From a virus (lineage: Duplodnaviria > Heunggongvirae > Uroviricota > Caudoviricetes): 64,000 nt of DNA. The DNA is taken from IMG/VR virus record IMGVR_UViG_2778261224_000007; one strand, written 5' to 3'. The notes under the pieces were generated by a model that did no database searches, was not told where the DNA came from, and saw nothing but the letters and a program-made list of their open reading frames with translations. The position numbers and the translations under genes are program-made. This document shows, piece after piece, positions 21,463-59,260 of the stretch (position 1 is the stretch's first letter; the number at the start of each line of letters is the position of its first letter).

Positions 21463-22725
21463 ATGAGCACTTCAGCACAAAACCAATCAATCGAAAATGT
21501 ATGTATCCCTGATGTCCTGAATGCCGGTATCCCGGCCATTATCCAGAACATCCGGGCCGCGCAACGCCGCGTTAGTTGTGATGACCTCACAGCACGTTTT
21601 TTTGATAATGCGGTTCAGTCAGCGGAGATGCTTCACGCACAGCTTATTGATGTTTATAACGCAGAAGCTGATAGCCATAACTCCCTGGTAGATGCAGCTG
21701 AAAATATGCAGTTGGATCTCGGTCTGAAGGGTAAAGAAATTGAAGAGCTTCAGCTGGAAATTGAACATTTGAAACGCCAGCAACAGGACGCGATCGACGA
21801 TGCGACGCATGACGCCAACCAGCGTGCTGATAATGCCGAACGTATAAGCATTGAGCTGGAAACAAAACTCAATGAAATGACCGCGATGGTTGAACTGCGG
21901 AACTCACAGATTTCAACGCTAAAATCTCAATATAAAGAGATCATGAAACTTGATCCTTTTAACCTTGAGAAACGCTATAACAAAGCTAAAAGCGAGCGAC
22001 AGGAACTGCGTAAGCAGGTCGCCGACCTTAACCAACAGCTCAAAAAAACTATTAAAGATGCAAGCGAGGCGCGCGTGGCATTTGCTAATAAAAAAGCAGA
22101 GGTTACCGCGCTGGTTAATGAGAATGCCAAATTTGCGACGCTCAAGAAGGAAATGTATGGCATTACTGAGCGCCGTTTCCCTGCAAGCAAACTTCATCCG
22201 ACGTTAGGGCAAATCTCCTTCTTCCCGCGCCTCCTAGCTTATGGGATCTCATCGCCTAAAGAGTTCAATAACGAGCGTCCTTATATCGTTTCTAAGCTGG
22301 ACTTTGCTTATCAGTTCTGCTGCGACATGGGCTATGCCATTGATATCCGAATCAACGAATGGTTGATGCCAAACTTCCAGCCGTTGGCAATTTTCCGCGA
22401 GTTCCAGCCGGAAGGTTGGGTAGAGTTCTTCCATGAATTGATCTGTAAAGAGATGGAAAGCCGCCGCCCGGAATTGGTCCGTCGAGTTGAGTGGGCGCAA
22501 GAGGTTATGTTGGCAGATGCAGAGCTGCCGTTCGAACCGGAATTCATTGATGATCTGGCAACTAAAGGGTTGCATACCCTGTTTGATGTGGTTACCCGCC
22601 GTCATGAGCAGTTGGTTGTCGAATTGGGTTTAGAGGAAACTGCGGCAAGAAGACTTCTCGATGTTTGCTATGCACGTAGCGATGCATGGGAAAAAGAGAA
22701 CGGCGGCACTATTTACGTTCGCTGA
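21463..22725 (+). CDS. hypothetical coiled-coil protein
   Basis: 420-aa ORF; heptad-rich central region (residues about 90-230). Confidence 0.5.
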   Translation: MSTSAQNQSIENVCIPDVLNAGIPAIIQNIRAAQRRVSCDDLTARFFDNAVQSAEMLHAQLIDVYNAEADSHNSLVDAAENMQLDLGLKGKEIEELQLEIEHLKRQQQDAIDDATHDANQRADNAERISIELETKLNEMTAMVELRNSQISTLKSQYKEIMKLDPFNLEKRYNKAKSERQELRKQVADLNQQLKKTIKDASEARVAFANKKAEVTALVNENAKFATLKKEMYGITERRFPASKLHPTLGQISFFPRLLAYGISSPKEFNNERPYIVSKLDFAYQFCCDMGYAIDIRINEWLMPNFQPLAIFREFQPEGWVEFFHELICKEMESRRPELVRRVEWAQEVMLADAELPFEPEFIDDLATKGLHTLFDVVTRRHEQLVVELGLEETAARRLLDVCYARSDAWEKENGGTIYVR

Positions 22726-22744
22726 TAGTTACAGTGTCACTTTT

Positions 22745-22778
22745 AATGCTGGTGGAGTGCTCCCACCAGCATTTTTTT
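22745..22778 (+). terminator. intrinsic terminator containing Chi (GCTGGTGG) in both stem arms
   Basis: AATGCTGGTGGAG-TGC-TCCCACCAGCATT followed by TTTTTTT. Confidence 0.7.
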
Positions 22779-22797
22779 CGTCCAATGAGGAGGGCAT

Positions 22798-23304
22798 TTG
22801 AGTATTTTCAATAAACACGCACACCAGGAACGTCCGTACATCGTCATAGTAGATATTGATGGGACGATATCAGAGGCAACGGAAGACAGGCTGCATTTAC
22901 TTCCACCACCTGGCAAAGGTGCATTAACAGAGCACTGGAACGAGTTTAACCTTGCCTGTGACACTGATGCTCCCATCACTCCAGTTATTGATATGGTGCG
23001 CCAGTTATTTAACGTTTACACGGTCTGGTTTGTAACCGGGCGCTGTGAGATCGCAAGGGATAAAACACGAGCCTGGCTGCGGAAGTACGTAACAAACGGT
23101 GCTGAGCCTTTGCTATCTATGCGTCCTGCCACCGATGACAGAAATGACGGCCCAGCAAAGATTGATCTCCTTAAGAAAATTGGTCTAAGTAAAATCGCGT
23201 TCGCACTGGAAGATAAGATTGAAGTGGCGCGTGTTTTCAGGAGTCACGGCGTACTTACGTTAATGGTCAGGGAGTATGAAAACGCACTTCTTCATCAACA
23301 ATAA
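22798..23304 (+). CDS. HAD-superfamily phosphatase-like protein
   Basis: 168 aa; N-terminal IVIVDIDGTIS (HAD motif I); TTG start with GAGGAGG RBS. Confidence 0.5.
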   Translation: MSIFNKHAHQERPYIVIVDIDGTISEATEDRLHLLPPPGKGALTEHWNEFNLACDTDAPITPVIDMVRQLFNVYTVWFVTGRCEIARDKTRAWLRKYVTNGAEPLLSMRPATDDRNDGPAKIDLLKKIGLSKIAFALEDKIEVARVFRSHGVLTLMVREYENALLHQQ

Positions 23305-23320
23305 TTGCTCTAATAAATCT
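23304..23320 (+). promoter_or_regulatory. C1 repressor operator
   Basis: ATTGCTCTAATAAATCT, 16/17. Confidence 0.7.
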
Positions 23321-23404
23321 TGATTTTTAAAACAGGGAAAGTGAAAATAAAAACATGCCGCAAGGGGCGCGGCATGTATCCAATCAATCACAGGAGCTGA
23401 AGAT

Positions 23405-23491
23405 ATGAACACGGCATTCAAAATCATTATGACCGCGATCTATTTCTGGCTGTTCTCTATCACTTTTGGCGGCATCGTCGCTCATGGGTAA
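23405..23491 (+). CDS. small hydrophobic peptide (28 aa)
   Basis: Hand-translated MNTAFKIIMTAIYFWLFSITFGGIVAHG behind AGGAG RBS, downstream of the C1 operator. Confidence 0.35.
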   Translation: MNTAFKIIMTAIYFWLFSITFGGIVAHG

Positions 23492-23570
23492 GGGGAGTAT
23501 ATTAGCCATTTGGGACCCCACGGTCTCTTGCGGGTTTAATTAAGAACCCGCAAGAAAAATACGAATTGGG

Positions 23571-26500
23571 CTATATTTTTCCGCCTACGCCTTTAAACTT
23601 CTCAATAAACGAGACGATTTTCTGGAAAACTGCCTGTTTTTTCGTTTTATATTGCGGATTTAACGGACTAAGTTTTGGTAATGTTTCGTTTAATTCTGTG
23701 CCATTTTCGGTGGCATATTCGCGTTTTAAAGACGTGCGAATATAGCGTTTTGCTGCATCTTCATTGAGATTTTCTTCTTTTATCAATGCTTCTGCTTCAC
23801 GTTGCTGTTCGCGTTGAGCAAACGTAAAGAATGCGTCAATGATGCTGGCTTTGTCCGGTAAATCATCCAGGTTCGTTTGCTGAATAAAATCGACCACCAG
23901 GCCCTCTTTAGCACGGTTCCCTAGGCTTGAACGAATTAAGCGTTTGACCTCTTCGATCATTTCGCCCTTGCCTTTATTTTGTCTGTTGTGTTCGAAAATC
24001 AGTCCAAGGATATAATCCAGGTTTATTTCCTGAGACTTCAGCAAATCGACCTCAAAAACTACGTCATCCCAGTCAGTGGTTGATTTCTCTTTTTTCTCAG
24101 CTTCTTTCTCACGGCGCTGCCAGTCGCGAATATCGTTATAGGCAGAACGATAATCCTGAATCTTGCGATCAGCAGGGAGACGAATTGTTTGCAATTTAGC
24201 GAACTTTTCATCATCCACATAATGCTCTGCTTTGAATTTTTCTACCGCAACAGGATCGCTAAGATCGATTTGTTGCAGGGCTTTTAGCGTGGCAAATTCA
24301 TCATAGTTTTGCAGGATGTTCTCGGCACGCAGGTATTCGCCAAACAGTTTAACGAAGTCTTTCTTCTCTTTTTCACTTTCAATACTGGCAGGGTCAGGGA
24401 ACCGTTGTTCCAGTTCTGAAACTACTGTCATAAAGCCGCGTTTAGCTTCACCAGTAGCAGCATCAGTAAAGCCTTCCATATACTCTGTATAACTCTTTTC
24501 TAACACCACATTTTTGGTGTTTTTGTCACCAAACAGCGTTATGGCATCAATAGTTGAGCGTTCCAGATCCCGGAAAGTGACGATATTACCGAAGGTTTTA
24601 GTAGCGTCATAAATGCGGTTGGTGCGGGAAAATGCCTGCATCAGGCCGTGAAAACGCAAGTTTTTATCGACGAATAGCGTGTTCAATGTTGGAGCATCGA
24701 AGCCGGTTAAAAACATCCCCACGACGATTAACAAGTCAACATCCTGATTTTTAACCCGCTGAGCCAGGTCCCGATAGTAGTTCTGAAAACCCTTGCTATC
24801 AGTACTGAAATTCATTTGAAAATGGTCGTTATATTCACGAATTGCAGCATCCAGAAACTCTTTAGCACTGCTGTCCATTGCGCTGGTATCAAAAGTTTCA
24901 TCGGAAATTTCACCAATGGCATTTTGTTCTTCATTAGCGGCAAAGGAGAAGATTGTCGCAACACGCAGCGGTTTATAGGTAGCCGATTTATTAGCGGCTT
25001 CTTCTTGTAACCGTTTAAACGTCGCATAATAGGCTTTCGCGGCATCCACGCTGCTCACTGCCAGCATGGCATTAAAGCCTTTGGAGCCTGGGAAGGTACG
25101 GTGGGTTTTCTGGCGGAAGTTGTTCAGGATATATTGCGTGATTTCCTGAATACGCATGGGATGAAGAAACGCCTGCTGATTTTCAGCCGCACTCAGTTTT
25201 TTCTCGTCAGTTTCTGTCTCTAAAGACTTAAACTGTGGCCGCACATCGTTGTAGTCCACCTTGAATTTGAGCACTTTTTCGTCACGAATCGCATCGGTAA
25301 TTACATACGAATGCAATTCACGACCAAATACGCTGGCGGTTGTTTCTGAGCCTAAGGCGTTTTCCGGGAAAATAGGGGTGCCGGTAAAACCAAACTGATA
25401 ATAGCGTTTGAATTTCTTCTTCAGGTTTTTCTGCGCTTCTCCAAACTGGCTGCGGTGGCATTCATCAAATATAAACACCACTTGCTGATTATATACAGGC
25501 AGGTCGCTTTCTGCTTTCATCAGATTATTGAGTTTCTGAATAGTAGTGACGATAATTTTGTTATCGTCCTTATCCAGATTTCGTTTAAGGCCTGCGGTAT
25601 TTTCCGAGCCGTTGACGCTGTCTGGCGAAAAACGCTGATATTCCTTCATGGTCTGGTAATCGAGGTCTTTCCTGTCGACCACAAAGAAGACTTTATCAAT
25701 AAAGTCCAGCTCTGTTGCCAGACGCGCGGCTTTAAAGCTGGTGAGGGTTTTACCAGAACCGGTAGTGTGCCAGATATACCCACCGCTTTCCGGTTTTGAC
25801 CAGTTCTTCGCTGTAAAGGAACTCTTAATTTTCCACAGAATGCGCTCGGTGGCGGCAATCTGGTACGGTCGCATCACCAGTAGCGTCTGACTACTGTCAA
25901 AAACGCTGTAGTTCACCAGAACATTCAGCAGAGTATGTTTCTGGAAAAAGGTAGCGGTAAAGTCTTTGAGGTCTTTAATCAGCGTGTTGTCTGATTTCGC
26001 CCAATTCATGGTGAAGTCAAAACTGTTTTTATCGCGCTTTGTCGTGTTGGCAAAATAACGGGTATCGGTGCCGTTAGAAATGACAAACAGTTGCAGATAC
26101 TTAAACAGGGAATTTTCGCTGTTAAAACTCTCTTTACTGTAACGATGTATCTGGTTGAAAGCCTCACGAATCGCCACCCCGCGTTTTTTTAGTTCGATTT
26201 GCACCAGCGGTAAACCATTAACCAGGATCGTGACGTCATAACGGTTAGCATGAGAACCCGTCTGTTCAAACTGCTGGATAATCTGCACCTTATTGCGCAT
26301 GAGATTCTTTTTATCTATCAAATAGATGTTCTCAAGTCGCTCGTCATCAAAAATAAAGTCGCAAATATAGTCGATATGGATTTTACGGGTCTTATCCAGA
26401 ATGCCATCGCTCGGGTTGTCCAGATACTGCTCCGTGAAACGCCGCCACTCGCTGTCATTAAACACCACACCATTGAGGCTCTGAAGCTGTTGTCGAACAT

Positions 26501-26687
26501 TGGCCAGCATCGCCGACTGAGATTTTACGGATATAAATTCATAGCCCTGATTTCGCAGGTCCTGAATCAGTTCACGTTCCAGGTCCGATTCGCTCTGGTA
26601 GCTGTCGCCTGTTGGCTCAGCTTTGATGTACTTATCAAGAACGATAAAGTTATTGGATTCAGCAATGGTGTGTGTCTGATGAGTCAT
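23571..26687 (-). CDS. hsdR: type I restriction enzyme R subunit
   Basis: 1038 aa; Walker [13 protein letters not shown]-like [10 protein letters not shown], typical HsdR length and motif order. Confidence 0.9.
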
Positions 26688-26808
26688 AGCGCATCCTTTG
26701 TGCCGTCTGGCAAGGGCCGGAAGGGGGGTAATGGTGACTTCCGGCGCGTAAAAAATAGTCTATATACTGACCGGGTGTTAAGGTGGTCCGATCGGTAGCA
26801 ATGATCAA

Positions 26809-27435
26809 TTAATTACTGACAGTTTCAGGTTTCGGGAAACTGAACAGTAAATCACGGTAGTATTCGTATTGTTTCTGGCGCAACTCGATTTCACGCGGAA
26901 GACCTTCGGTGATGGAGTTAGTCAGGGTGTCGAAATTATCCAGAATCCGAACGATTTCAGACTGGATGGCAAGGGATTTTTCCGGATTATCCGGGCAGGG
27001 GATTGGGATTTTTTTTTGAGAATAATTACTAATCCATTGGCGTTTATGGTCTCCCTCTGCGAATTCACTTGGTAATGTATTGAGCCAATAGTAAACATAT
27101 TTCAGTAAGGTTTTATTATCATCACATGATGTAACCATTTTCATAGCCGATGATTTTGCCTTAAAGTCAAAATCCACCCATTTATTAGCGGTGGTGAAAT
27201 CATCAAAAATTATTACAGGTGCCTTTGATGCCTGATAAATACCATGAGTCTCATTTGTGTATCCAAGAATAAATGTTTTTCCGGCAGTAAGAACCGGGAT
27301 GGTATATGTGTCGTGATAATCTTTTGCTTTTACCAAATACTTTGTTGGCTGTTCATATTTGGTTATTTCCCCCAATGGCAACCACTCAACCTCAACCCCA
27401 TCCAGCAATTTTTCCAGATAACTTAACTCGCTCAT
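26809..27435 (-). CDS. hsdS: type I R-M specificity subunit, half-size (single target-recognition domain)
   Basis: 208 aa; one variable TRD plus conserved C-terminal helix ([17 protein letters not shown]...[15 protein letters not shown]); ATG overlaps hsdM stop. Confidence 0.75.
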
Positions 27436-28994
27436 TTTTGCACCTCGCAGCCTTCAATTTCAGCCACAATCGCATCAATATCTTTACGCAACTGGTCGAT
27501 TTTGCTGACCGTGGTTTTCAGCTCAGCATTCAGCTCAGCAATATCGATAATTTCGCGGTTATCTTTCGCTTCCACATAGCTGCTCACCGACAGGTTATAG
27601 TCATTAGCAACAACGGTCTCAAACGCGACAGATTTCGCCAGATGAGCAACATCTTCCTTGCTGGCAAATACCTGCATAATCTGTTCGATATGGGTATCGG
27701 TCAGGATATTGTTGTTAGTCTCTTTTTTGAACAGTTCGCTGGCGTCAATAAACTGAACGTTGGTATCCGTTTTATGTTTGGACAGAACCAGAATGTTTAC
27801 TGCAATGGTGGTGCCAAAGAACAGGTTCGGTGCCAGTGAAATTACGGTTTCGACATAGTTATTGTCAATCAGATACTGACGGATTTTCTGCTCCGCGCCG
27901 CCACGGTAAAAAATACCCGGGAAGCAAACAATCGCAGCACGACCTTTGGCAGAAAGATAGTTCAGCGCATGTAGTACAAAGGCGAAGTCAGCTTTTGATT
28001 TGGGGGCCAGAACGCCAGCCGGGGCAAAACGCTCATCGTTAATCAGTGTCGGGTCATCGCTGCCAATCCATTTCACCGAATACGGCGGGTTAGAAACGAT
28101 GGCATCAAACGGTTTTTCATCTCTGAAGTGCGGCTCAGTCAGTGTATTACCCAGCCTGATATCAAACTTGTCGTAGTTGATGTTGTGCAAAAACATGTTC
28201 ATACGCGCCAGATTATAGGTCGTATGGTTGATTTCCTGACCGAAAAAGCCTTCTTCGATGATATGGTTATCAAACTGCTTTTTCGCCTGCAACAACAGCG
28301 AGCCGGAACCCGCTGCCGGGTCGTAGATTTTGTTAACGTTGGTCTGCCCGTGCATAGCCAGTTGTGCAATCAGCCTGGAGACGTGCTGCGGTGTAAAGAA
28401 CTCACCGCCTGACTTACCAGCATTCGCCGCATAGTTAGAAATCAGGAACTCATAGGCATCGCCGAACAGGTCAATCTGATGTTCGTTAAAGTCGCCAAGC
28501 TTTAAGCCTTCAACCCCTTTCAGGACCGCAGCCAGGCGGGCATTTTTATCCTTAACGGTGTTACCCAGGCGGTTACTGGTGGTATCGAAATCAGCAAACA
28601 GACCTTTGATGTCTGCTTCTGAAGGATAACCGTAAGCAGAACTTTCGATAGCAACGAAGATGCTGTTTAAATCTGCATTCAGTCTGTCATTGGTATTTGC
28701 TTTCGCCGCTACGTTGCAGAAAAGCTGACTGGGGTAGATGAAGTAGCCTTTAGTTTTGATGGCATCGTCTTTAATATCATCAGTAATTACGCTGTCATCC
28801 AGTTTCGCATAACAGATACTGTCATCACCGGCTTCAATATAGCTGGAAAAATTTTCGCTGATAAAACGGTAGAAAAGTGCGCCCAGAACGTATTGCTTAA
28901 AATCCCATCCATCGACCGAACCCCTGACATCGTTAGCAATTTGCCAGATTTGACGATGAAGCTCTGCACGTTGTTGAATACTTGTCATTTTCAT
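27432..28994 (-). CDS. hsdM: type I R-M N6-adenine DNA methyltransferase subunit
   Basis: 520 aa; HsdM N-terminal domain and NPPY motif ([10 protein letters not shown]). Confidence 0.9.
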
Positions 28995-29170
28995 CCACTT
29001 ATTTCAGGCTTATGTAATTGGATGTGATTCTACAGCAACTTGGATGCTTTAGCAGTTCGGATATTAGGCTACGAATGACCTGCCTAGAGGTTTGTTAAGC
29101 CGCAAAGTGCTGGTGCTTTATGTCTGTGAAGTTTATAATTGCGTACACATAACGAGTACACGAGGTATTT

Positions 29171-29392
29171 ATGCAATCCATTAACTTCCGTACCGCGCGC
29201 GGCAACCTTTCTGAAGTGCTCAACAATGTTGAAGCCGGGGAAGAGGTTGAAATCACCCGCAGAGGCCGTGAGCCAGCAGTAATTGTCAGCAAGGCTACTT
29301 TCGAAGCCTACAAAAAAGCGGCGCTGGATGCTGAATTTGCATCCCTGTTTGACACCCTGGACTCCACCAACAAGGAACTGGTTAACCGATAA
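29171..29392 (+). CDS. phd: antitoxin Phd
   Basis: 73-aa protein upstream of and overlapping doc. Confidence 0.9.
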
Positions 29393-29772
29393 TGAGGCAT
29401 ATATCACCGGAAGAACTTATTGCGCTTCATGATGCGAATATAAGCCGCTACGGCGGCCTGCCGGGAATGTCAGATCCGGGTAGGGCAGAGGCCATTATCG
29501 GGAGAGTTCAGGCCAGAGTTGCCTACGAAGAGATCACCGACCTTTTCGAAGTCTCCGCCACCTACCTGGTGGCTACAGCGAGAGGGCATATATTCAATGA
29601 TGCCAATAAGCGTACCGCGCTAAACAGCGCGCTGCTATTTCTACGCCGTAACGGGGTGCAGGTATTTGATTCACCTGAACTGGTAGACCTTACCGTAGGG
29701 GCTGCGACCGGAGAGATATCTGTATCTTCTGTCGCCGACACGTTACGTAGATTGTATGGTTCTGCGGAGTAG
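29392..29772 (+). CDS. doc: toxin Doc (Fic-fold kinase)
   Basis: 126 aa; [12 protein letters not shown] Fic-like motif; start overlaps phd stop. Confidence 0.9.
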
Positions 29773-41092: not shown

Positions 41093-41117
41093 TTAATTAC
41101 GTCAGTAGCCAATAGAG

Positions 41118-41153
41118 ATTTTTGTTGTGGAACAAAAATATATATTTTACAAT
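41118..41153 (+). promoter_or_regulatory. hairpin plus candidate sigma70 promoter (TTGTGG-17-TACAAT) for the inserted cassette
   Basis: ATTTTTGTT-GTGG-AACAAAAAT hairpin; -10 TACAAT at 41148-41153. Confidence 0.35.
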
Positions 41154-41182
41154 CTAGTAACTTTGGGTGGGGGATTATTACA

Positions 41183-42223
41183 ATGATGAATATTAAGCCG
41201 CTGAAAATTAGGAACAAGGTCATGAAGCCTCATAAAGCATTATTAAACCCTGACCTAACCGCAAGGAATGTACTTACATACAGTCATTGGGATTTTGTCG
41301 AACTCTGGTTAAAGCGAAACGAAAAAGATGAGGCTCTTTTTTATTGGGAGCAAGCAAAAGTATTTAATCAGGCGGCCAATGGTTTACCCAACCAATCAGC
41401 CCCACTTTTGCACTATTATTCATTCATGAATGCAGTAAAGGCGTTACTTTCATCTCGCAATATAAACTTCAAACAGCATCATGGTGTTGCTAGGGGTGAA
41501 AATGCAGCCCAAATTGATAACTTATCTGATATAAAAGTAAAAATAAAAAATGAGGGTATACTTCCGTCTTTTTCAAAATATATTGACGGCACCTCTCATG
41601 AGGGGGTGTACAATATAAAAAACCTTTTTTCTGGATTGCCATATATTCATCGTACATATTGCCTTACTTATGATGTAACTGATGATATATTTATTCCACT
41701 GATCGATGCTGAGTTCGTTTTGAATGAGTCAGACAATAGCCTGTTTTTCACTGCGATTTTATCCAAGGATTTTCGGTTCGACACAGTTTTCGACATTCTA
41801 CCGCCAGCGTTCGAATTGTTTGAAAGAGAAAAGTACAAAATAAAATCAGTAGAATCATTACTTGATTATAATGAAAATCAATCGTCCAACATGCCGCAAT
41901 TAACTGAATTTCATAAAAAAATAAGAAGAAATCTTTACTATATCAATGGCGCAGAGACTCTTTGGTATCTCAAACGTAAAAACAATCAATCTGAGCATAC
42001 TTCTGTTTCAATATCGCCATTGGTTATAACCCTAGCAGCTATGCATCGATTAAGTGAGCTATGTCGGTATGACCCACTTAAGCTAAGACAGTTACTAAAT
42101 GAAAAAGAAAACTGGATTATTGCTGAATTTATTCAACAATCTCCGTCACAGTTTATAGATGCAATTTCATCTGAAATTACTGGACACCAATTTCTTATCC
42201 CAAACGTAAGGTCTGCTTCTTAA
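41183..42223 (+). CDS. hypothetical protein, unrecognised family (cassette gene A)
   Basis: 346-aa ORF with GGTGGGGGA RBS; AT-rich; possible Rx6H (RKNNQSEH) motif near C-terminus; no nucleotide-binding motifs seen. Confidence 0.8.
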   Translation: MMNIKPLKIRNKVMKPHKALLNPDLTARNVLTYSHWDFVELWLKRNEKDEALFYWEQAKVFNQAANGLPNQSAPLLHYYSFMNAVKALLSSRNINFKQHHGVARGENAAQIDNLSDIKVKIKNEGILPSFSKYIDGTSHEGVYNIKNLFSGLPYIHRTYCLTYDVTDDIFIPLIDAEFVLNESDNSLFFTAILSKDFRFDTVFDILPPAFELFEREKYKIKSVESLLDYNENQSSNMPQLTEFHKKIRRNLYYINGAETLWYLKRKNNQSEHTSVSISPLVITLAAMHRLSELCRYDPLKLRQLLNEKENWIIAEFIQQSPSQFIDAISSEITGHQFLIPNVRSAS

Positions 42224-42732
42224 TGAATATATATATCGCATGCGCTTTAACTCATGTTCCAAGGGAAATTTTCCATGAGTACAGTAATTGGATTCACAGC
42301 CTTGCAAAAGGTCTATCTCAAAATAACAACGTAAAATATGCTTTGATAAATAGTGACCCAGAATTATCAAAGCGCCCTGAAAGTAACAAATCTAGACTTT
42401 GTTACATTTGGGACAGAGATATGGTTGAGAAATCTGATGTAATAATTGCAGAATGTAGTTTTCCATCAACAGGGCTAGGAATAGAGTTGCAGATTGCTGA
42501 ACAGAAGAACATTCCTGTAATCATCTGTTATAAAGATTATGGGATAAATAAAACTAAAACCATTGAATACGTGAATCCAGATGAGACTACCCATAATCTA
42601 CAAGTTGGCGAGGGTTTCATTTCTCATATGGTATTAGGACTACCAAACATCCTTGATGTCATATTATGTAAAGATATTGATAACACATGCAGGAAGCTAA
42701 AAATACTGTTAGATATGATTAACCATAATTAA
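42223..42732 (+). CDS. DNPH1/nucleoside 2-deoxyribosyltransferase-like protein (cassette gene B)
   Basis: 169 aa; N-terminal NIYIACAL and catalytic-motif-like DVIIAECSFPSTGLGIELQIAEQKNIPVI (compare DNPH1 DVVVAEVTQPSLGVGYELGRA); start overlaps gene A stop (TAATG). Confidence 0.8.
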   Translation: MNIYIACALTHVPREIFHEYSNWIHSLAKGLSQNNNVKYALINSDPELSKRPESNKSRLCYIWDRDMVEKSDVIIAECSFPSTGLGIELQIAEQKNIPVIICYKDYGINKTKTIEYVNPDETTHNLQVGEGFISHMVLGLPNILDVILCKDIDNTCRKLKILLDMINHN

Positions 42733-42762
42733 AAATTAACACCCACTTAAGATGTCTAAACC

Positions 42763-42782
42763 AGCCCGGTATTAACCGGGCT
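42763..42782. terminator. hairpin between convergent genes
   Basis: AGCCCGG-TATTAA-CCGGGCT. Confidence 0.4.
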
Positions 42783-42790
42783 AGACAAAC

Positions 42791-43509: not shown

Positions 43510-46500
43510 TTATGCGTATTGTTGGATGACGGCCAGAACGTCCGCCACGTTGTGTTTTGTCTCGATAATCCACCAGTTACCCGGGAAATCGCTGTTCTTC
43601 GCCTTCGCTGGCAGCCAGCGAGCGCCGAATTTCGCCTTGATTGCGTCTTTCGCACGGAAAAGAACGCCTTTCATGCCTGAGGCTTCCTGAAGCCCAAATA
43701 CCTCGCCAGCGGCGAATTTTGGTGCGTACATCATCTTCAGGTCGGCGGTGGATACGCGATAATTCAGACCAAGAGACTGAGCTATGCTGGTGGCATCACC
43801 CTGTATTGATGATAACTCTTCTTGTTTCTCGTTTCTGGCGGCAATTTCTTCCTCCGTGATGTTGCCAAGGGCCAGGTTTATCCGATCAGCGTCGGCCTGT
43901 TTCTCTTCATCGGTGCGCCCGGCAAGAACCGTGTTAATTCTCTGCAATATCTCCACATGATTCTTGCGCATGCTGAGCAATTCCGGCGTAACCTCGTTAA
44001 GATCCACCAGCCCAAGGATGGCAAGGTCGGAAAACATTGATACCAGGTTGTAGGTCATGCGATAGCTGAGTTGGCCATAGGCTGATGGCAACTGCACCGC
44101 ATCCATTTGATAGGCATCCATAAATTTAGAGCCGTCGTTTACGACATCCGCAATTGCAGGTGTGATTTTCCCTGTGGTGGCGGCCTCCCTGATTGCTGTT
44201 ACCCACGATTGAGTCAGTGCGGCGACTGCATGATTCAGATTGGCTTCCCGTTCTGCTGCGATGCGCGCGTTTGCTGCGTCCATTGCCTGCTTGATCTCGG
44301 CTTTATTGCTGTAAATGCCAATGGTGCCAAACTGTGCTGTGGTGATCTCATAATCTGACGCCCGGAACTCATGGGTACCGAAAATGGCATTGGTGACCTC
44401 AAGTTCAGAATCCCCGTTACGAGTAGCCCCCTGGCTTGTTTTCTCCGGCATTTTTGCGATCGCATCCGCTATTTTCTCCTGAATTGCTTCAGGGGATAGC
44501 GTATCTCCGTATGACGCGATTACATCGCCATAATTGGAGCCAAACAATTCAACCAGGAATGTTTCTGCCGAACGGATCTGGCGGTTATTCCCTTCCGACA
44601 TCATACCAAGCACCCATTTTGCAATTGACGACTTCAGCGCGCCGTCACGGCGATCCGGGTAAACCGCATGCTTCAGTGGGTCCGTATAGGTACCAATAAA
44701 ATCAATGCTATAGCCTGACTCTGTAGTCTGAACGCCGTATGAGTCAGTGATTTTGATCATGCCGCGCTGCTGGAAACGGTAGAAATCGTCACAGGAAATG
44801 ATGTCGTTAATCCCGGCGATGGAGACGCCACCACTGATTTTCTGCATAACAGCATCTTCATCGGGAGTTACATCCACCTGTTTATCCAGCGTCTTCACAT
44901 CCCAGTTACCCGATTTGGTGCCTCTTAAGGTAAAGATGATCTCCACGTCTGCGCGCTGGCTGTCGAAGTCCAGCGACTTAATGCGAACGATATCACCGGC
45001 ACAATCGTAGTATTGGCCTACACGCCATGAGCGATCGCCGATAACAAGGAACTCATTCGCATGGTTAACCAGATCAGGATCAACATCCAGAATGCCTTTA
45101 TTTATTGCATCCTCCACCAGCGGGCGCAGGCGTTTGATATCCGTCGCGGCCTTCTGAGTACGGTTCAATAATTTCTCATAGCGGGAGATGGCCTGAGAGA
45201 TATTAGCCTTGCGCTGAATGGCGCTTTTCAACGACGCGCGATACTGTGCTAACAACATACGGTCTGTGTGATGGACACTCCCCCAGCGGGCCTTCCAGTC
45301 TGCGTTATCCGCTGCCTTGGCCATTGCCGCCTGTTTGAATTTAGCTACCTCGGCGGTGGTCTTTTCAAGTTCCGCTTTGCTTCGCTCTAATTCAGCGGTA
45401 AGTACCTCCACATCCTCGCCAGCTGCGTGCTGCGCCTTGATGTAGTTCTGAAGGTCGATAGTAGCCTGTTCTTTCTGGCGAGCGCGTTTCGCAGCTTTCG
45501 CCTTATCCATTTGAACCTGCATCATTGCCAGACGTTCGCCGTCATCCTTCGCGGTATACATCTGCATTTCGATCATGTCATTGGCGTCGGCGTTCTCCAT
45601 TTCTGACTTATCTGAACGGAGGATATCGGAGATCCAGCCTGCTTTACGCTTCAGCGTCTTCAGTCGGTATTCATCGAAAGACCCCTTGCCGCAGTAGTAG
45701 TGAACGCGAACGCTTGCACGGTTGGAACCAACTCGGGCACCGCGACCGTTACGCTGTGCGATACTGGCTGGTGTCCACGGCAACGTCAGGTGGTGGATAT
45801 CCGTCGTTCCTCGATGCAGGTTGATACCCACCTCTGCCTTTTTGTTGCAGATGATGATCGGAGTCCGGCCCTCCTGGAAGTCGGCTGCAATCTTTTCCAG
45901 ACCGCCCAACGACATTTCATTTTGCTGCGCGATATAGGCGTCATACAGAGCCATTTGCTCGTTGTATTTCGCTATCTGTGCATCTGTTGGTTCATCCGGT
46001 AGCTCTTTCGGCGGTTTAACCGCTTTCAGTTTCTTACCGGTTTTACCTGCCTCGGCAACCGTCTGAGCATTCAGGATCCCCACCTTTGAAGGTTCAAGGT
46101 TTAGAGCATTGCAGATAATGCGCTTGAGCTTCTGGTGCTGCGTTTTTTCATCGGTGAAGATGATTTGCTTACCTTCCGGGAAAAACTCCTTCAGCGTGGC
46201 GATCAGCTTCGCGTATTTCGGCGTAACGGGGTGAGTTACGGTCTGTTCGTCAATGCCAAACCTGGCCAGGCGCTTATTCACTTCCTGCTCGAACGCTTCC
46301 GGAACCTGCAACTGAATAAACTCGCCCTTATCTATCAGGGAGTATTGCGATTGCTGCGTGATTGAATCATCACTGTCGTCGTCTTCGCTGGTGGCTTGTT
46401 TAGGCAAACTGTCCGCCAGCTGCTGCACCGCATCGGCGTACTCCGGCAGGAAACGATAGGTGATCCGGCGATAGTACAGGTCCATGTCAGTACATACGCG

Positions 46501-49500
46501 GTCCATATCCCTGATTATTGAGAAGATCGGACGGGCTTTCTCGTGCTCAATCACGCCATCTTCATTGACCGAGGTCGTTACGCCATTGTTGGCTTTGGCC
46601 GCCGCTTCCGCCTGCTGACGCAATTCTTCATACGCCGCCAGTTGTTCTTCAGTAAGTGGTGCATCCTGCTGGTGTTCGTCCAGCTCCGGGATCTCCACGG
46701 TATCCTTAACGTCTTCCGCCGTTTTAAGCGTTACCCAGCGATGGAATATACCGCGCAGCGCATCAAGGTTTTCAAAGCCCACCAGCGCCATTTTTTCTTC
46801 AACTTCACCGCTAATTTTCTGTACCGTTTCCAGCCTAGTCTTGCCGAAGAATTTAACGAAGTCATCAGGACCGTAGATCCCCATGTTCTGCCAGTATTCC
46901 TTCGGCAGAACATGAGAAAGCATGTTGTATGCATCGATCGGGGTGTTAACGACTGGCGTTGCAGTCAGGAGAACCGGCCCGCGCCCGCCATTCTTTTTCA
47001 TCAGGTACGCGTTTTTAATTGCCATATCTCGCGCCGATTGCGCCACCGCGCTGGTGGGCAGATAGGCCAGTTGTGACGCTTCGCGACCATTTTTATAGCT
47101 ATTGCGGTAGTTGTGACCTTCGTCAGCGATCACACTATCGAAGCCCATATCCTCAAAGTACGGATACTTCTCTGCTTTTTCGGTGCCGGTATCTGAATAC
47201 TCCGACAATACCCGGCGACGCGCGGCCTCTTTGCGGTGGGAGTCGGAGTCCATTGCGCTGGCTACGCGTCCGGCGGCAACGAAGTCATAAAGCATATCCT
47301 GTGCATGCTCATCTACGGTGTCATCACGTAGCGGAATGCGGGCGTATTGTTCTTTGGTAAACACGACTGCACGGTAATTTGAGTGCGGGATCGCGTTCAT
47401 CCGCGCCGTGATAGTGGCTTCATCTGCCAGCTTAAGAGCATCGCGCATAACTGGAGTGCCATCAGTACCAAGAACAGGTTTACCGTTCTCATCGAGCACC
47501 GGCACCTGGCGAATCTGATCGCCATCCATCAGCACATCAAGACCGACGAACAGGTAGTTACTGAATGCCTCTTCACTCAGGAATTCTTTTGCTTCGTAAT
47601 ACCAGTTTTCCAGCACTGATTTAGGCACTACATACGCAGTACGGGTGGAGCGACCGTTCTCATAGTTGAACGCCTCAAGCGCCAGCGCGGTCGTGGTTTT
47701 ACCCAGCCCGGTGCCGAAGCCCAGGATGCCGCGCCCATCTTCGGACAGTCGGCGCACCTCGCTATTCTGGTAATCAAATGGCTGTCGCTTACCGCTTAAT
47801 CCCTTCAACCCAAGCGGATCGCCAGAGTGTTCATACGGGATATTGCTATTGAACACATCGTTGTATTTGGCAACCAGCTCATCGTAGCGATCGTGCGTCT
47901 TGATCCACTTATTGAACTGGTCCTCAAGCAGTGCCATCTGCTCGCGGTAGCCGTTCGCCGTCGCGCTATCTTTGCCACCGATACGCGCACCATTGAGATA
48001 CTTTTCCAGCTGTGCCGGGAACCCGGTCGCGTTTTCACCTGATTTACGGTCCCACTCGTAGCGGATCTCGCCTGTTTCTTTATCCTTGCGCTGGACGACA
48101 CCGTATCGGTGCCCGACGAACAGACCATCACCACCGTGATAGGTGTCAGAAACCATTTCGTCGCCTTCCAGCTGCACTGACTGCACATAGCGCAGATCCG
48201 GATAGCCGTTTTCCTGCAAAAATTCCAGAATGACGGAACGGTCGAACCAACGGCTATTGAGCTTAAAGCGGATATTCTCTGCTGGCGTCTTGATGCGCTT
48301 CTCTTCGATCGCTGCCAGCTGATTAAGGACGTTGTTTTTTACTGGACCGTCGGGGAGTGTGGCAAGGAATTCCTGTTTTGGAGCCACTATCTCGTTAATG
48401 TCGCCGCTGGTGGCGCGGGCGAACGGAACAATCCCGCCATACGGTGAAACCGCAATACCAGGGGTGCTGGCCAATAAATTAAGCAACTCTTCATCACTGG
48501 CTGGCAGTTCGCCGGTAAACGCAAGGCGGAAATCATCGAGCTGGATTGGATCGCGGGTAAGATCGCTATAGAGATAACGCAGGGTGTCCTGATAGCTGGT
48601 GGAGTCATAACTGGCGCTGGAATCATGCGTAACCAGCTTTCCTGTCAGCTCGTCAGAAATAGTGCCATCCAGCTTAATTGCACCACGGAAAGCAAACCAG
48701 GCGCGCGCACCGCTCCCCGATAATTTCGCTATCGGACCGCGACCGGGGTTACCAAAACGGTCAATCTCTGCCTGCAAACGGGATACCAGAGAAAGGCGCT
48801 GCTGTTCGATTTGTTCAGCACTATGCCCGGCGGCCTTCATGTCCTGATATTCAATTAACATCCGGCCAATCATCGCTCCGCGATACAAGCGTTCACGGTA
48901 TTTTTCAGGCTGGCTGTTAATCCAGTCCACCAGCTGCACCATATCGTCGCTGATTGATGTGGTGTACTTATCGCGGACATTTGCCATCTGGGTAAATGTC
49001 ATACCGAGACGGCCTTCTGTTGTAGTCAGGTTACGCTGAAGAGCCTCCCAGCTATCCGCACCATAACTGGCAACCTCAATCTTCAGCTCCTTCCCGGCAT
49101 CAGCTTCAATCCAGCGACCACCAGCATATTTTTGCCATACGCCATTAATCAGGCGCATTTCCCCTTCATCAACAACATCTGCGGTCGGTGACGGTTCAGC
49201 CATATCGAGCAAAGACCAGTCGATACGACTTTCGAAACGATGAATCAGCTTCGCTTTAAGAGCCTGGTTATCAATCTGCCCGTCGGCACGAACCTCAATA
49301 CGCCCCTGGAATCCCTTCTCCTGAGTGCCATGAACAAACCGGCGGCCGTCCTTTTCAAACCACTTGCCAGAAATAAACGTTGGCCAAAGCACATTTGCCG
49401 ATTCAAGAGTGTCTTCATCCACCAGGGGGATTTTCTCAGCCATCTCCGCCGGATGTTTGCGCATCAGCACCACGTCAACGACCGTACTGGTCCCGTTTGC

Positions 49501-50277
49501 GTCAAAAGTACCGGTAGGCAAGCGGTGGGCACCAAGAAATTCAGCTTTCCGTGATAGGCGCAGGCGTAACCGCTTCATGTTTGAACCTGAAACAATGGAC
49601 GGCGGCACAATCACGCACATGAATCCGCCTGGCTTTATCTTGTCCAGCATGCGGAGCATGAAGTAAGAACCCATGTCCGTTTCTTCTGCGTAAGGCTTAT
49701 CGATGTTGCGTGTGTTATCACGACCACCGAACGGAACGTTACCCACAACATGGTCGAATGAATCGTTAGGCGTGCTTACAGCCAGTTGTTCGAACGGGGA
49801 AATCTGTACGCTGTCTTCCGGATGTAACAGCTGGTTTATACGACCGGAAACACTGCTGATCTCAGTCGCGGTCATCACCGTACCAACCGGTTTTGTCTCA
49901 TTAAAAACGCCGGTGCCCGCCGATGGTTCCAGAGTGTTACCTACGTCCGCGCCGTAGAGCTTCATGATCTCCCAGACACCTTCAGCGATCGGCTTTGGTG
50001 TGTAATATTCGGAGACGGACCCGCCAATGCCACCTTCACCGGTGTACCCAGCCAGGATCTGGCGCTGTTCATCTGTCAGTGTCGCGCCGTCCACCAGCGA
50101 ATTAAGCAAATCTATCGCCTTCTGATTCGCCTCACGGCGCAGTCGGTCATAGCTTTTGCCTTCCACCTTTTCCACGCCGTATTTAATCGGCGCTCGGTGA
50201 GATGTTATTGCCCTAATGTATTTCAATATTTCGCTGACACTTGAACAGCGAAACACCCCCATAGATAGCTTGTTCAT
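43510..50277 (-). CDS. darB: DarB antirestriction protein (giant methyltransferase/helicase-like virion protein)
   Basis: 2255-aa ORF; N-terminal adenine-MTase-like motif (GNVPFG), Walker A (GFGTGLGKTTTALA), DExH box (VIADEGHNYRN). Confidence 0.85.
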   Translation of the reverse strand: MNKLSMGVFRCSSVSEILKYIRAITSHRAPIKYGVEKVEGKSYDRLRREANQKAIDLLNSLVDGATLTDEQRQILAGYTGEGGIGGSVSEYYTPKPIAEGVWEIMKLYGADVGNTLEPSAGTGVFNETKPVGTVMTATEISSVSGRINQLLHPEDSVQISPFEQLAVSTPNDSFDHVVGNVPFGGRDNTRNIDKPYAEETDMGSYFMLRMLDKIKPGGFMCVIVPPSIVSGSNMKRLRLRLSRKAEFLGAHRLPTGTFDANGTSTVVDVVLMRKHPAEMAEKIPLVDEDTLESANVLWPTFISGKWFEKDGRRFVHGTQEKGFQGRIEVRADGQIDNQALKAKLIHRFESRIDWSLLDMAEPSPTADVVDEGEMRLINGVWQKYAGGRWIEADAGKELKIEVASYGADSWEALQRNLTTTEGRLGMTFTQMANVRDKYTTSISDDMVQLVDWINSQPEKYRERLYRGAMIGRMLIEYQDMKAAGHSAEQIEQQRLSLVSRLQAEIDRFGNPGRGPIAKLSGSGARAWFAFRGAIKLDGTISDELTGKLVTHDSSASYDSTSYQDTLRYLYSDLTRDPIQLDDFRLAFTGELPASDEELLNLLASTPGIAVSPYGGIVPFARATSGDINEIVAPKQEFLATLPDGPVKNNVLNQLAAIEEKRIKTPAENIRFKLNSRWFDRSVILEFLQENGYPDLRYVQSVQLEGDEMVSDTYHGGDGLFVGHRYGVVQRKDKETGEIRYEWDRKSGENATGFPAQLEKYLNGARIGGKDSATANGYREQMALLEDQFNKWIKTHDRYDELVAKYNDVFNSNIPYEHSGDPLGLKGLSGKRQPFDYQNSEVRRLSEDGRGILGFGTGLGKTTTALALEAFNYENGRSTRTAYVVPKSVLENWYYEAKEFLSEEAFSNYLFVGLDVLMDGDQIRQVPVLDENGKPVLGTDGTPVMRDALKLADEATITARMNAIPHSNYRAVVFTKEQYARIPLRDDTVDEHAQDMLYDFVAAGRVASAMDSDSHRKEAARRRVLSEYSDTGTEKAEKYPYFEDMGFDSVIADEGHNYRNSYKNGREASQLAYLPTSAVAQSARDMAIKNAYLMKKNGGRGPVLLTATPVVNTPIDAYNMLSHVLPKEYWQNMGIYGPDDFVKFFGKTRLETVQKISGEVEEKMALVGFENLDALRGIFHRWVTLKTAEDVKDTVEIPELDEHQQDAPLTEEQLAAYEELRQQAEAAAKANNGVTTSVNEDGVIEHEKARPIFSIIRDMDRVCTDMDLYYRRITYRFLPEYADAVQQLADSLPKQATSEDDDSDDSITQQSQYSLIDKGEFIQLQVPEAFEQEVNKRLARFGIDEQTVTHPVTPKYAKLIATLKEFFPEGKQIIFTDEKTQHQKLKRIICNALNLEPSKVGILNAQTVAEAGKTGKKLKAVKPPKELPDEPTDAQIAKYNEQMALYDAYIAQQNEMSLGGLEKIAADFQEGRTPIIICNKKAEVGINLHRGTTDIHHLTLPWTPASIAQRNGRGARVGSNRASVRVHYYCGKGSFDEYRLKTLKRKAGWISDILRSDKSEMENADANDMIEMQMYTAKDDGERLAMMQVQMDKAKAAKRARQKEQATIDLQNYIKAQHAAGEDVEVLTAELERSKAELEKTTAEVAKFKQAAMAKAADNADWKARWGSVHHTDRMLLAQYRASLKSAIQRKANISQAISRYEKLLNRTQKAATDIKRLRPLVEDAINKGILDVDPDLVNHANEFLVIGDRSWRVGQYYDCAGDIVRIKSLDFDSQRADVEIIFTLRGTKSGNWDVKTLDKQVDVTPDEDAVMQKISGGVSIAGINDIISCDDFYRFQQRGMIKITDSYGVQTTESGYSIDFIGTYTDPLKHAVYPDRRDGALKSSIAKWVLGMMSEGNNRQIRSAETFLVELFGSNYGDVIASYGDTLSPEAIQEKIADAIAKMPEKTSQGATRNGDSELEVTNAIFGTHEFRASDYEITTAQFGTIGIYSNKAEIKQAMDAANARIAAEREANLNHAVAALTQSWVTAIREAATTGKITPAIADVVNDGSKFMDAYQMDAVQLPSAYGQLSYRMTYNLVSMFSDLAILGLVDLNEVTPELLSMRKNHVEILQRINTVLAGRTDEEKQADADRINLALGNITEEEIAARNEKQEELSSIQGDATSIAQSLGLNYRVSTADLKMMYAPKFAAGEVFGLQEASGMKGVLFRAKDAIKAKFGARWLPAKAKNSDFPGNWWIIETKHNVADVLAVIQQYA

Positions 50278-55567: not shown

Positions 55568-55598
55568 AAAAAATCCCGCCGATTGGCGGGATTTCTTC
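55566..55598. terminator. bidirectional intrinsic terminator
   Basis: AAAAAAA-ATCCCGCC-GATT-GGCGGGAT-TTCTTC. Confidence 0.7.
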
Positions 55599-55905
55599 AA
55601 TATACGATCTGGTCTACATGATCACCAAAATCATCGTCGTCGTCCTCATCGCCACCATCTACTGCTGGCCAATCAACAAACCAGCCAGCGTAAAGATGCA
55701 GCGTTCGGAGAACATCACTTGCGGGAGCATCAAGGGTGTTAACGAATCCCATATAGCTATTGGGATTTGCTCCAGCTATGGCTTCAGCGATCATGTCCTC
55801 GGTAATGTCACCGGAGATAATGCTTAAACGCCCGGAAACTTCTTCATTATCATCAAATTCGATAATGGCATCTCCGCCTAATGGCGCTGCGATTTTAATC
55901 TGCAT
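55597..55905 (-). CDS. hypothetical protein with poly-Asp C-terminus
   Basis: 102-aa ORF, last gene of the dar operon, overlapping ddrB end. Confidence 0.5.
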   Translation of the reverse strand: MQIKIAAPLGGDAIIEFDDNEEVSGRLSIISGDITEDMIAEAIAGANPNSYMGFVNTLDAPASDVLRTLHLYAGWFVDWPAVDGGDEDDDDDFGDHVDQIVY

Positions 55906-58894: not shown

Positions 58895-59260
58895 TTATGC
58901 TGCCTCTTTAATGTTGGCGGCTATCCATGCCGCCGTGTGCTGTTTAACCTGGTCCAGGTCGATGTATGTGCCAACATATTGATTCAAATCCTGCAAGGTA
59001 CCGATAAATGCATCGGTGCTCTGATCGACGAATTTATCAGCCAGGAAATCAGCAACCAGTTTTGGCACACCATCATGTTCCGAAGGTTGTTTTTCCTCGC
59101 CACTACCACCGCCGGACGCGCCGTACCCCATCTGTTGCATGATCTGGTCAATTTCATCGCTGATATCCAGCAACTCCATACCACTCGCGGTAGCCGCTTT
59201 GGACATCAGAGCATCCAACTTATCGCTGAGATCCATTAACTCAATAGCTGATAGTGTCAT
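58895..59260 (-). CDS. ddrA: DdrA
   Basis: 121-aa ORF overlapping darA stop; symbol from gene order. Confidence 0.6.
   Translation of the reverse strand: MTLSAIELMDLSDKLDALMSKAATASGMELLDISDEIDQIMQQMGYGASGGGSGEEKQPSEHDGVPKLVADFLADKFVDQSTDAFIGTLQDLNQYVGTYIDLDQVKQHTAAWIAANIKEAA

Follow-up and report, generated by a model that had tools for sequence, protein, structure and literature searches.

The window analysed here, a 64,000-nucleotide (64-kb) stretch of DNA from a P1-like phage-plasmid, carries an intact type IC restriction-modification (R-M) locus whose specificity subunit, HsdS, is 208 aa long, about half the usual size. We consider it probable, at roughly four chances in five, that this is a functional system in which a natural half HsdS works as a homodimer on a palindromic target. 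Two half subunits would zip together in antiparallel fashion through their helices, forming a two-fold symmetric S core, and the binding of two HsdM to this core would give an M2S2 methyltransferase. The enzyme would then methylate both strands of a palindromic bipartite site, predicted to be GAA(N7)TTC or GAA(N8)TTC on the basis of precedents (PMC3874165 Table 2; PMC12707154 table). With the addition of HsdR, it would become an ATP-driven translocating endonuclease that cuts unmarked DNA, thereby shielding the lysogen from other phages and plasmids. A search of the accessible literature returned no methylome, restriction or biochemical data on this hsdS allele.

The hsd locus and its family

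The three genes of the system lie on the minus strand at 23571-28994. The first, hsdM (27432-28994), encodes a 520-aa N6-adenine methyltransferase subunit, followed by hsdS (26809-27435) for the half-size specificity subunit and by hsdR (23571-26687) for a nuclease/translocase subunit of 1038 aa. HsdM matches the Pfam families N6_Mtase (E 6.5e-121) and HsdM_N and is a TIGR00497 hsdM equivalog in NCBIfam (647 bits), HsdS has a single Methylase_S domain, and HsdR matches HSDR_N, SWI2_SNF2/ResIII, T1R_D3-like and EcoR124_C; the Pfam and NCBIfam matches for type I subunits are well above cut-offs. The NPPY motif of HsdM is found at residues 302-305. In HsdR, the motor motifs GSGKT (310-314) and DECH (408-411) are accompanied by the nuclease residues D151, E165 and K167, within YDVTIL and QIELKK. 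The full type I subunit set is present: a gamma-class N6-adenine methyltransferase, an HsdS, and an HsdR combining a PD-(D/E)xK nuclease with an SF2 motor. The preliminary description of this DNA had proposed such a complete minus-strand set from the NPPY of HsdM and from a Walker A and a DEAH-like box in HsdR, and the open reading frames, domains and motifs bear it out. The lower G+C content that it suspected is also real, at 44.0% for the hsd cassette (39.2% for hsdS) versus 48.5% for the remaining window.

The same description placed all three genes in one operon, which holds for part of the locus. The hsdM and hsdS genes overlap by ATGA, as is usual in type I operons, and the hsdS reading frame is clean, but hsdR is separated from hsdS by a 121-bp gap and may be a unit of its own. 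In type IC systems, hsdR is transcribed from its own promoter. Since a promoter-like site (TTAACA-18-TATTTT) is present in this gap on the minus strand at 26752-26781, as a candidate separate hsdR promoter, there may be two transcription units instead of one operon. In the same consensus scan, promoter-like sites in the hsdS-hsdR region were no more numerous than in shuffles. A putative terminator, a hairpin with a 10-bp stem and a T run, lies 3' of hsdR on the same strand (23353-23377), within the P1-homologous flank.

HsdM is identical to the EcoR124I HsdM chain 7BST_D at 515 of 520 positions (99%), and HsdR is ~98.7% identical to EcoR124I HsdR 2W00_A, differing at 13 of the ~968 aligned residues shown. 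Both proteins match the crystallised/cryo-EM EcoR124I subunits end to end and retain every catalytic motif, and the gene order hsdM-hsdS-hsdR, with hsdR set apart, is that of type IC. As judged from these alignments, the locus is an intact R-M system of the type IC (EcoR124) family, a membership that the preliminary description overlooked. It has the gene order of EcoR124I and EcoR124II (plasmid R124; PDB 2W00, 7BST) in common with them, and the N-terminal stretch, GAA target-recognition domain (TRD) and C-terminal helix of its HsdS are essentially identical to theirs. However, the EcoR124I HsdS has 404 aa, two different TRDs (GAA and CGAY) and a central helix with TAEL repeats, whereas alignment and repeat comparison found neither a second TRD nor a TAEL-bearing central conserved helix in the 208-aa protein. 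With its one TRD, no TAEL repeat and a distal helix, the locus is therefore classed as a half-subunit variant inside type IC, not as a canonical member.

Architecture of the half-size HsdS

Alignment to the two-TRD HsdS of EcoR124I (7BST_A) divides the protein, encoded on the minus strand, into an N-terminal conserved stretch (aa 1-18, nt 27382-27435), a GAA-type TRD (about aa 19-150, nt 26986-27381), and a single dimerisation helix of the distal (D2) type (about aa 151-208). The two proteins are near-identical through ~residue 165, and aa 107-208 also align to 7BST_A 304-404, where the last ~43 residues (~362-404, the C-terminal conserved helix) match exactly. Conserved motifs are located at aa 6-18 (13 residues) and 168-179 (12 residues). 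One open reading frame of ~200 aa with a single TRD, one dimerisation helix and the N-terminal conserved stretch is what defines a half HsdS, and the single TRD plus conserved helix first proposed for this gene agrees with the alignment. A frameshifted second TRD nearby, named beforehand as the mark of a truncated remnant, is not there: just 121 bp separate the gene from hsdR, and tblastn of the 64-kb window found no further hsdS-like sequence or second TRD fragment. The preliminary description had left the choice between a dimer recognising a symmetric site and a truncation, and each is correct in part, as a TRD plus helix has been lost precisely and in frame, yet all the parts of engineered active halves are kept. 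From its sequence, then, the 208-aa HsdS is a natural half subunit and not a decayed remnant.

An engineered equivalent is known from the laboratory. EcoR124IΔ50/NT (HsdS residues 1-215) is homodimeric, recognises GAA N7 TTC, and is active both as a methyltransferase and as an endonuclease (PMC2877798, PMC3320862, PMC3874165). It has the same TRD as the window HsdS, a similar length (~208-215 aa), the N-terminal conserved stretch and one coiled-coil helix. It differs in keeping the central D1 helix with two TAEL repeats, whereas the helix of the window HsdS is of the distal D2 type, which the alignment shows to be 4 aa longer, and in being an engineered truncation, whereas the window allele is a repeat deletion circulating in wild plasmids. 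Other type IC half subunits also give interrupted palindromes: EcoDXXIΔC and EcoDXXIΔN, likewise active as homodimers, recognise TCA N8 TGA and GAAY N5 RTTC respectively, and the natural half-HsdS system NgoAV recognises GCA N8 TGC (PMC3874165). EcoDXXIΔN, made of the C-TRD with a D2:D2 zipper, shows that the helix type present in the window HsdS can work in this way (PMC3874165). The TRDs and hosts of these three systems are different, and in NgoAV the half subunit is the product of a fragmented gene that still carries a dead remnant of its C-terminal part, in contrast to the clean, remnant-free deletion seen here. The combination in the window HsdS, an N-TRD with a mostly D2 helix, is absent as such among the engineered constructs. 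The protein is nonetheless the natural counterpart of a well-studied laboratory mutant, real and largely explained by existing knowledge.

Placement and origin in P1-like plasmids

Homology to P1 stops at window position 23495 (P1 84482) and restarts at 29095 (P1 87970), so that the hsd cassette (5599 bp, or 5.6 kb; 23496-29094) replaces P1 84483-87969 and with it pmgT, pmgU, pmgV, upfM-O, hot, lxr and humD. The reference P1 genome carries pmgT to humD at this position, without hsd genes, confirming the earlier remark that it has no type I system. The cassette sits between pap and phd-doc, and the proposed neighbours phd (29171-29392) and doc (29392-29772) are found immediately to its right, on the plus strand. 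They diverge from hsdM across 176 bp, are 98.3% identical to P1 87970-88600, and are annotated as Phd/Doc in sister records. According to the annotation of the P1 record, both junction flanks share 96-98% identity with the sequences that border the EcoDXXI and R124/3 hsd loci.

Type IC hsd loci with P1 DNA on both sides were reportedly described by Tyndall and colleagues in 1997 (Mol Microbiol 23:729), and this position, with P1 pap on one side and phd-doc on the other, has been on record from that time, although the preliminary description overlooked it. The P1-flanked loci of EcoDXXI, EcoR124 and EcoprrI have their insertion point in common with the window cassette, from the pap/Op88 region to phd-doc, but they are carried by a conjugative plasmid or the chromosome, whereas the window cassette is in an otherwise complete P1-like genome that keeps its Dar genes. 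On the minus strand, darB (43510-50277) encodes 2255 aa with 98.9% amino-acid identity to P1 DarB, and darA (59257-61176) encodes 639 aa with 99.4% identity to P1 DarA; ddrB (55895-58882) and hdf (61178-61789) have 98.7% and 98.5% amino-acid identity to their P1 counterparts. All four are intact and encode proteins of the same lengths as in P1, while ulx and ddrA are inside P1-homologous blocks of the window. DarA and DarB are thus encoded uninterrupted in the same genome, as had been claimed, and their presence beside a type I system is not paradoxical, since Dar protection works in cis, on the DNA that is injected (PMC12707154).

Across the hsd locus, the sister plasmid pRHB13-C03_3 shares 99.85% identity with the window. 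An extra in-frame block of 609 bp gives it an HsdS of 411 aa, in which the GAA TRD is present in two identical copies. The hsdS segment at window 26941-27421 (minus strand) is doubled there as a 481-bp perfect direct repeat, as defined by blastn, self-comparison and two 3'-end mismatch positions, and the loss of one repeat yields the window hsdS exactly. The half-size gene would thus have arisen from a symmetric hsdS with two identical TRD repeats, one of which was lost by homologous recombination. The symmetric HsdS, which about 13 other plasmids share with pRHB13-C03_3, has the same GAA TRD, twice, and the same distal helix, but it is one 411-aa chain with a three-TAEL central helix, while the window HsdS is half-size. 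By the EcoR124II and EcoRD3 rule, the target of the 411-aa chain should be GAA N8 TTC, a specificity that the half subunit may or may not share.

A tentative and rather doubtful extension is that the half-size and two-identical-TRD alleles, residing in near-identical P1-like plasmids, constitute a natural recombinational specificity switch from an N8 to an N7 spacer. Were RecA to mediate the loss of one 481-bp repeat, a single-chain HsdS (three-TAEL D1 plus D2, GAA N8 TTC expected) would become a homodimeric half HsdS held by a D2:D2 zipper, for which GAA N7 TTC would be expected from the EcoDXXIΔN precedent. If this is true, one deletion would alter the spacer, and with it the specificity of restriction, in a defence system carried by a phage, and the product would be the first type I enzyme from wild E. 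coli whose S subunit is an obligate homodimer.

Recurrence, alternatives and significance

The exact 208-aa HsdS occurs on at least 74 contigs, and two further 208-aa alleles occur on 60 and 31, bringing the three alleles to ~165 contigs. All 10 inspected contexts of the exact allele are P1-like and contain full-length hsdM and hsdR, despite up to 38 nucleotide differences in hsdM and 22 in hsdR. In the 11 loci carrying the window allele, hsdM and hsdR are always intact and the hsdS nucleotide sequence is always identical, which implies that this allele is young; its conservation, taken alone, cannot prove selection. A more diverged locus, on plasmid A of E. coli H15, combines a 208-aa allele with intact hsdM and hsdR. 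Compared to the window, it has 13 synonymous versus 3 amino-acid changes in hsdS, 55 versus 8 in hsdM, and 67 versus 14 in hsdR. This synonymous bias between two 208-aa alleles could also come from independent deletions in functional full-length parents rather than from maintenance of the half form.

The same data bear on whether the half-size hsdS is an inactivating deletion, which would mean a recently disabled R-M system, or M and R leftovers usable only with an HsdS from elsewhere, with decay to follow. HsdS proteins with two fused TRDs predominate overwhelmingly (among 69 related hsdS ORFs from viral contigs, 65 have at least 330 aa), perfect repeats of 481 bp readily lead to accidental deletion, and the absence of nucleotide diversity in hsdS across the 11 loci fits such a recent event. 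We nevertheless judge it unlikely: equivalent truncations in the type IC family are active enzymes (PMC3874165, PMC3320862), hsdM and hsdR are intact in all 11 loci as well as in the diverged H15 plasmid, and three 208-aa alleles occur on about 165 contigs between them. Real decay does occur in other relatives, with an IS insertion in phi456 and a fragmented hsdM/hsdR annotation in 673R5, but none is seen at the window locus.

It is very unlikely that the system acts mainly as an M2S2 methyltransferase, restricting little in vivo and serving instead to mark DNA epigenetically or to confer protection against related type IC enzymes. Assembly of a type IC endonuclease needs a second HsdR, which binds weakly. 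Type IC assembly does pass through a cleavage-incompetent R1 intermediate, with restriction tuned by assembly (PMC12707154), and the candidate promoter site makes separate hsdR expression plausible. Against this, HsdR is full length with its nuclease and motor motifs intact, its divergence is mainly synonymous, and R.EcoR124I-NT cleaves DNA in vitro with half subunits (PMC3320862). Pairing with a different half or an HsdS fragment from the host or another element, giving an asymmetric specificity, is hardly credible even though co-expressed N- and C-terminal EcoDXXI halves restore wild-type specificity (PMC3874165) and type IC sequences are widespread in E. coli (an hsdM-hsdS-hsdR junction query matches 1349 of the 5426 complete genomes), as neither another hsdS nor a fragment of one lies in the 64-kb window, resident type IC hsdS genes are mostly full length and would need no partner, and the homodimer would form regardless.

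The proposed homodimeric half HsdS leaves current understanding of type I systems and of P1 unchanged. By analogy, it gives the laboratory result that half an HsdS suffices a natural and recurrent E. coli counterpart, on transmissible P1-like phage-plasmids, and the sister allele documents a one-step route between the fused and half forms. In lysogens of such plasmids, a predictable palindromic m6A motif is to be expected, and incoming DNA should meet a barrier. The locus also offers a natural system for asking why fused S subunits are so strongly preferred, and whether the type of helix, D1 or D2, sets the length of the spacer.

The hsd operon and its place in P1-like DNA

Three consecutive hsd ORFs span window positions 23571-28994 on the minus strand: hsdM (27432-28994, 520 aa; Pfam N6_Mtase and HsdM_N), hsdS (26809-27435, 208 aa; a single Methylase_S domain) and hsdR (23571-26687, 1038 aa; HSDR_N, SWI2_SNF2/ResIII, T1R_D3-like and EcoR124_C). 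The NCBIfam assignments for hsdM and hsdR agree with Pfam. The minus-strand hsdM-hsdS-hsdR set of the preliminary description is thus borne out by the ORFs and their domains, and the motifs that it named have been located: NPPY at HsdM residues 302-305, the Walker A sequence GSGKT at HsdR residues 310-314, and the DEAH-like box, DECH, at 408-411. HsdR has its nuclease residues as well (D151, E165 and K167). The hsdM and hsdS genes overlap by ATGA, and the 121-bp gap between hsdS and hsdR contains a promoter-like site (26752-26781). The lower G+C that had been noticed for the hsd genes is real, at 44.0% in the cassette and 39.2% in hsdS against 48.5% in the remainder of the window.

HsdM aligns end to end with EcoR124I HsdM (7BST_D), with 5 of 520 residues differing, and HsdR aligns end to end with EcoR124I HsdR (2W00_A), with 13 differences in the ~968 residues displayed. 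HsdS aligns with the 404-aa EcoR124I/II HsdS (7BST_A) in two pieces. Its N-terminal ~165 residues, almost identical to those of 7BST_A, comprise the N-terminal conserved stretch and the GAA-reading target-recognition domain (TRD). A second alignment, of residues 107-208 to 7BST_A 304-404, is weak in the TRD part and exact over the last ~43 residues, which form the C-terminal conserved helix. Unlike EcoR124I HsdS, the window protein has no second TRD and no central helix bearing TAEL repeats. Because all three subunits match EcoR124I while these two elements are missing, the system is assigned by sequence to type IC (the EcoR124 family) with a one-TRD specificity subunit; the single TRD plus conserved helix proposed for HsdS is confirmed by this alignment to a two-TRD protein.

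Nucleotide identity to P1 (NC_005856) comes in blocks of 96-99% over most of the window, which is a P1-like genome. On the left, P1 homology ends at window 23495 (P1 84482), just upstream of pmgT, and it restarts at 29095 (P1 87970), just past humD; a 5599-bp cassette stands here in place of 3487 bp of P1 (pmgT, pmgU, pmgV, upfM-O, hot, lxr and humD). The annotation of the P1 record itself notes matches to sequences flanking known hsd loci: to the downstream side of EcoDXXI hsd for 84263-84482 (96% identity), to the downstream side of R124/3 hsdR for 84399-84482 (98%), and to the upstream side of EcoDXXI hsd for the phd-doc segment, 87969-88647 (98%). The placement of hsd in P1 DNA is already known and not new; its position between these flanks was reportedly found by Tyndall et al. 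in 1997 (reference 364 of PMC12707154). The same cassette occupies the same place in the phage records phi456 and vB_EcoM-673R5, and P1, P7, RCS47, SJ46 and others share with the locus only a 166-bp flank. Matches to the hsdM-hsdS-hsdR junction occur in 860 plasmid records and in 1349 of 5426 complete E. coli genomes, and type IC sequences are, by this measure, common overall. Elsewhere, this genome lacks IS1 and isaB, which reference P1 carries at 22532-24245: at window 55568-55598, P1 homology skips from P1 22531 to 24246 across ~30 bp.

Recurrence, integrity and decay

That the half gene is an isolated error of assembly or sequencing is ruled out, the exact protein being present on 74 contigs and several complete plasmids. 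Two other 208-aa alleles occur on 60 and 31 contigs. All ten fetched contexts are P1-like (pap, hsdR, hsdS, hsdM, phd, doc, pdcA, pdcB, lpa, pacA and pacB), and hsdM and hsdR are full-length in 10/10. Across these contexts hsdS is nucleotide-identical, hsdM differs by at most 38 nt (3 aa) and hsdR by at most 22 nt (5 aa), with zero stops. The second 208-aa allele is found, next to intact M and R genes, at a more diverged locus on plasmid A (IncY) of E. coli H15. Between the window and this plasmid, synonymous codon changes against amino-acid changes number 13 vs 3 in hsdS, 55 vs 8 in hsdM and 67 vs 14 in hsdR.

Half-size forms are nonetheless a minority: 65 of the 69 related hsdS ORFs in viral contigs have at least 330 aa, against 4 with fewer than 260. 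One 99-kb metagenome viral contig (IMGVR_UViG_3300028603_000025, 6216-6830 of the retrieved locus) encodes a 204-aa single-TRD HsdS, 73% identical to that of the window, which may be an independent natural half-size relative. The P1-like hsd locus of the window, with the 208-aa hsdS, is also found at 5453899-5470525 of a chromosome-sized, 5.57-Mb record (CP043541.1), which points to integration of a P1-like element or to a join made in assembly. There is real decay in other relatives. In phi456 (7648-8628 of the locus) hsdS is split by an insertion encoding a 326-aa transposase-like ORF, recorded as 'baseplate hub protein', and in 673R5 the annotation breaks both hsdM and hsdR into pieces (two for M, and HsdR1 and HsdR2), suggesting frameshifts or sequencing errors.

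The res/mod region and the Dar proteins

The type III R-M genes of P1, res and mod (EcoP1I, with IS5; P1 3469-9749), are absent from the window, where two overlapping co-directional ORFs are found instead at 41093-42790. They encode a 346-aa YaaC-like protein (PF14175, E 1.5e-45) and a 169-aa protein whose weak resemblance to nucleoside 2-deoxyribosyltransferase (PF05014) falls below threshold; PADLOC and NCBIfam gave no hit for either. The block has no near match among 50,697 phage records. Eighty-five plasmids, for the most part non-mobilizable ones of E. coli, contain it at 95-100% identity; the 12 that are listed measure 91-369 kb, mostly 91-120 kb. The block, located in the P1 R-M hotspot, is a candidate accessory or defence cassette that is still uncharacterised.

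As the preliminary description stated, the genome encodes both DarB (2255 aa, 98.9% identity) and DarA (639 aa, 99.4% identity), and both are intact, as are DdrB and Hdf. The packaged Dar proteins work in cis, shielding injected DNA from several type I systems and from BREX (PMC12707154). The targets of a type I system encoded by a prophage are other DNAs that enter the cell, so the two functions do not conflict, and finding them together is unsurprising. No statement on Dar versus type IC enzymes was found in the literature searched.

Origin and predicted specificity of the half-size subunit

A decayed remnant, with a second TRD or a second hsdS nearby, is rejected as an origin for the gene: tblastn of four HsdS proteins against the 64-kb window matched only 26812-27435, and the frameshifted second TRD that would have marked a truncation is found nowhere in the 64 kb. 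A sister locus points to another origin. On plasmid pRHB13-C03_3 (CP057845), the locus is 99.85% identical to that of the window, and its hsdS (6210-7445 of the locus, 1236 bp) encodes 411 aa; ~13 other plasmid records (H40-H53) carry such a two-TRD allele. This protein is a natural single-chain subunit with two copies of the GAA TRD, the first leading into a three-TAEL central helix and the second into the distal helix, and it is expected to read a palindrome. The DNA copies of the two TRDs form a perfect direct repeat, identical over 481 bp, with divergence starting only at the helices. The window hsdS consists of the first 14 nt of the 411-aa gene joined to the second copy, which nt 15-627 match at 100% identity. 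Thus a single homologous-recombination deletion between the repeats would yield the window gene exactly and in frame. The route from half to fused gene is less simple, because the half gene has no central helix.

In P0005 and the 429-aa P0015, from the cluster of the window HsdS, the GAA TRD stands second, after an unrelated first TRD, and a normally N-terminal 13-residue motif accompanies it there. Among natural type IC alleles this recognition domain has thus shifted between positions 1 and 2, which makes the symmetric allele explicable: a crossover of an EcoR124-type with a P0015-type allele, within the central conserved region, could have produced it.

Systems of this kind, their insertion at this point of P1 DNA and working half S subunits are all already known. 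The RefSeq name for the window HsdS (WP_016231377.1) is only 'restriction endonuclease subunit S'. The literature searched, with REBASE outside the search, gave no description of this natural 208-aa allele and only engineered E. coli enzymes for GAA N7 or N8 TTC; nor did it give an account of the allele's recurrence in P1-like phage-plasmids or of the one-step relation between the half allele and a naturally symmetric two-TRD allele.

EcoR124I HsdS(Δ50) and the engineered S-NT (residues 1-215) dimerise and recognise GAA N7 TTC, and the enzymes built from them are active both as methyltransferase and as R2 endonuclease (PMC2877798; PMC3320862; PMC3874165). S-NT has the same TRD and N-terminal stretch as the window HsdS, whereas the window helix is of the distal (D2) type. 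The target of EcoDXXIΔC is TCA N8 TGA, and that of EcoDXXIΔN, made of the C-terminal TRD and distal helix, is GAAY N5 RTTC (PMC3874165), so a D2:D2 zipper is functional. Among natural type IC systems, NgoAV is an example with a half subunit (PMC3874165). With one TRD plus helix, a clean gene and such active precedents in the family, the earlier interpretation of the single-TRD system is supported. Two copies of the window HsdS would pair antiparallel and bind two HsdM, and this M2S2 complex would methylate both strands of a palindromic GAA...TTC site; together with HsdR, it would restrict unmodified DNA.

A count made to look for target-site avoidance gave 22 GAA N7 TTC and 18 GAA N8 TTC sites in the window, against ~26 expected, which tells neither for nor against avoidance. 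In the alignment to 7BST_A the distal helix is 4 aa longer than a two-TAEL central helix, and helix length, with the 4-aa rule in the type IC table (PMC12707154), suggests a spacer of N8. The sole D2:D2 precedent, EcoDXXIΔN, keeps a 7-nt methylation interval by our own counting (PMC3874165, Table 2), which suggests N7. The fused symmetric allele, having three TAEL repeats, should give N8 by the EcoR124II/EcoRD3 rule. Since the fused allele should give N8 and the half allele N7 or N8, it may be speculated that the two sister alleles, of 208 and 411 aa, differ in specificity.
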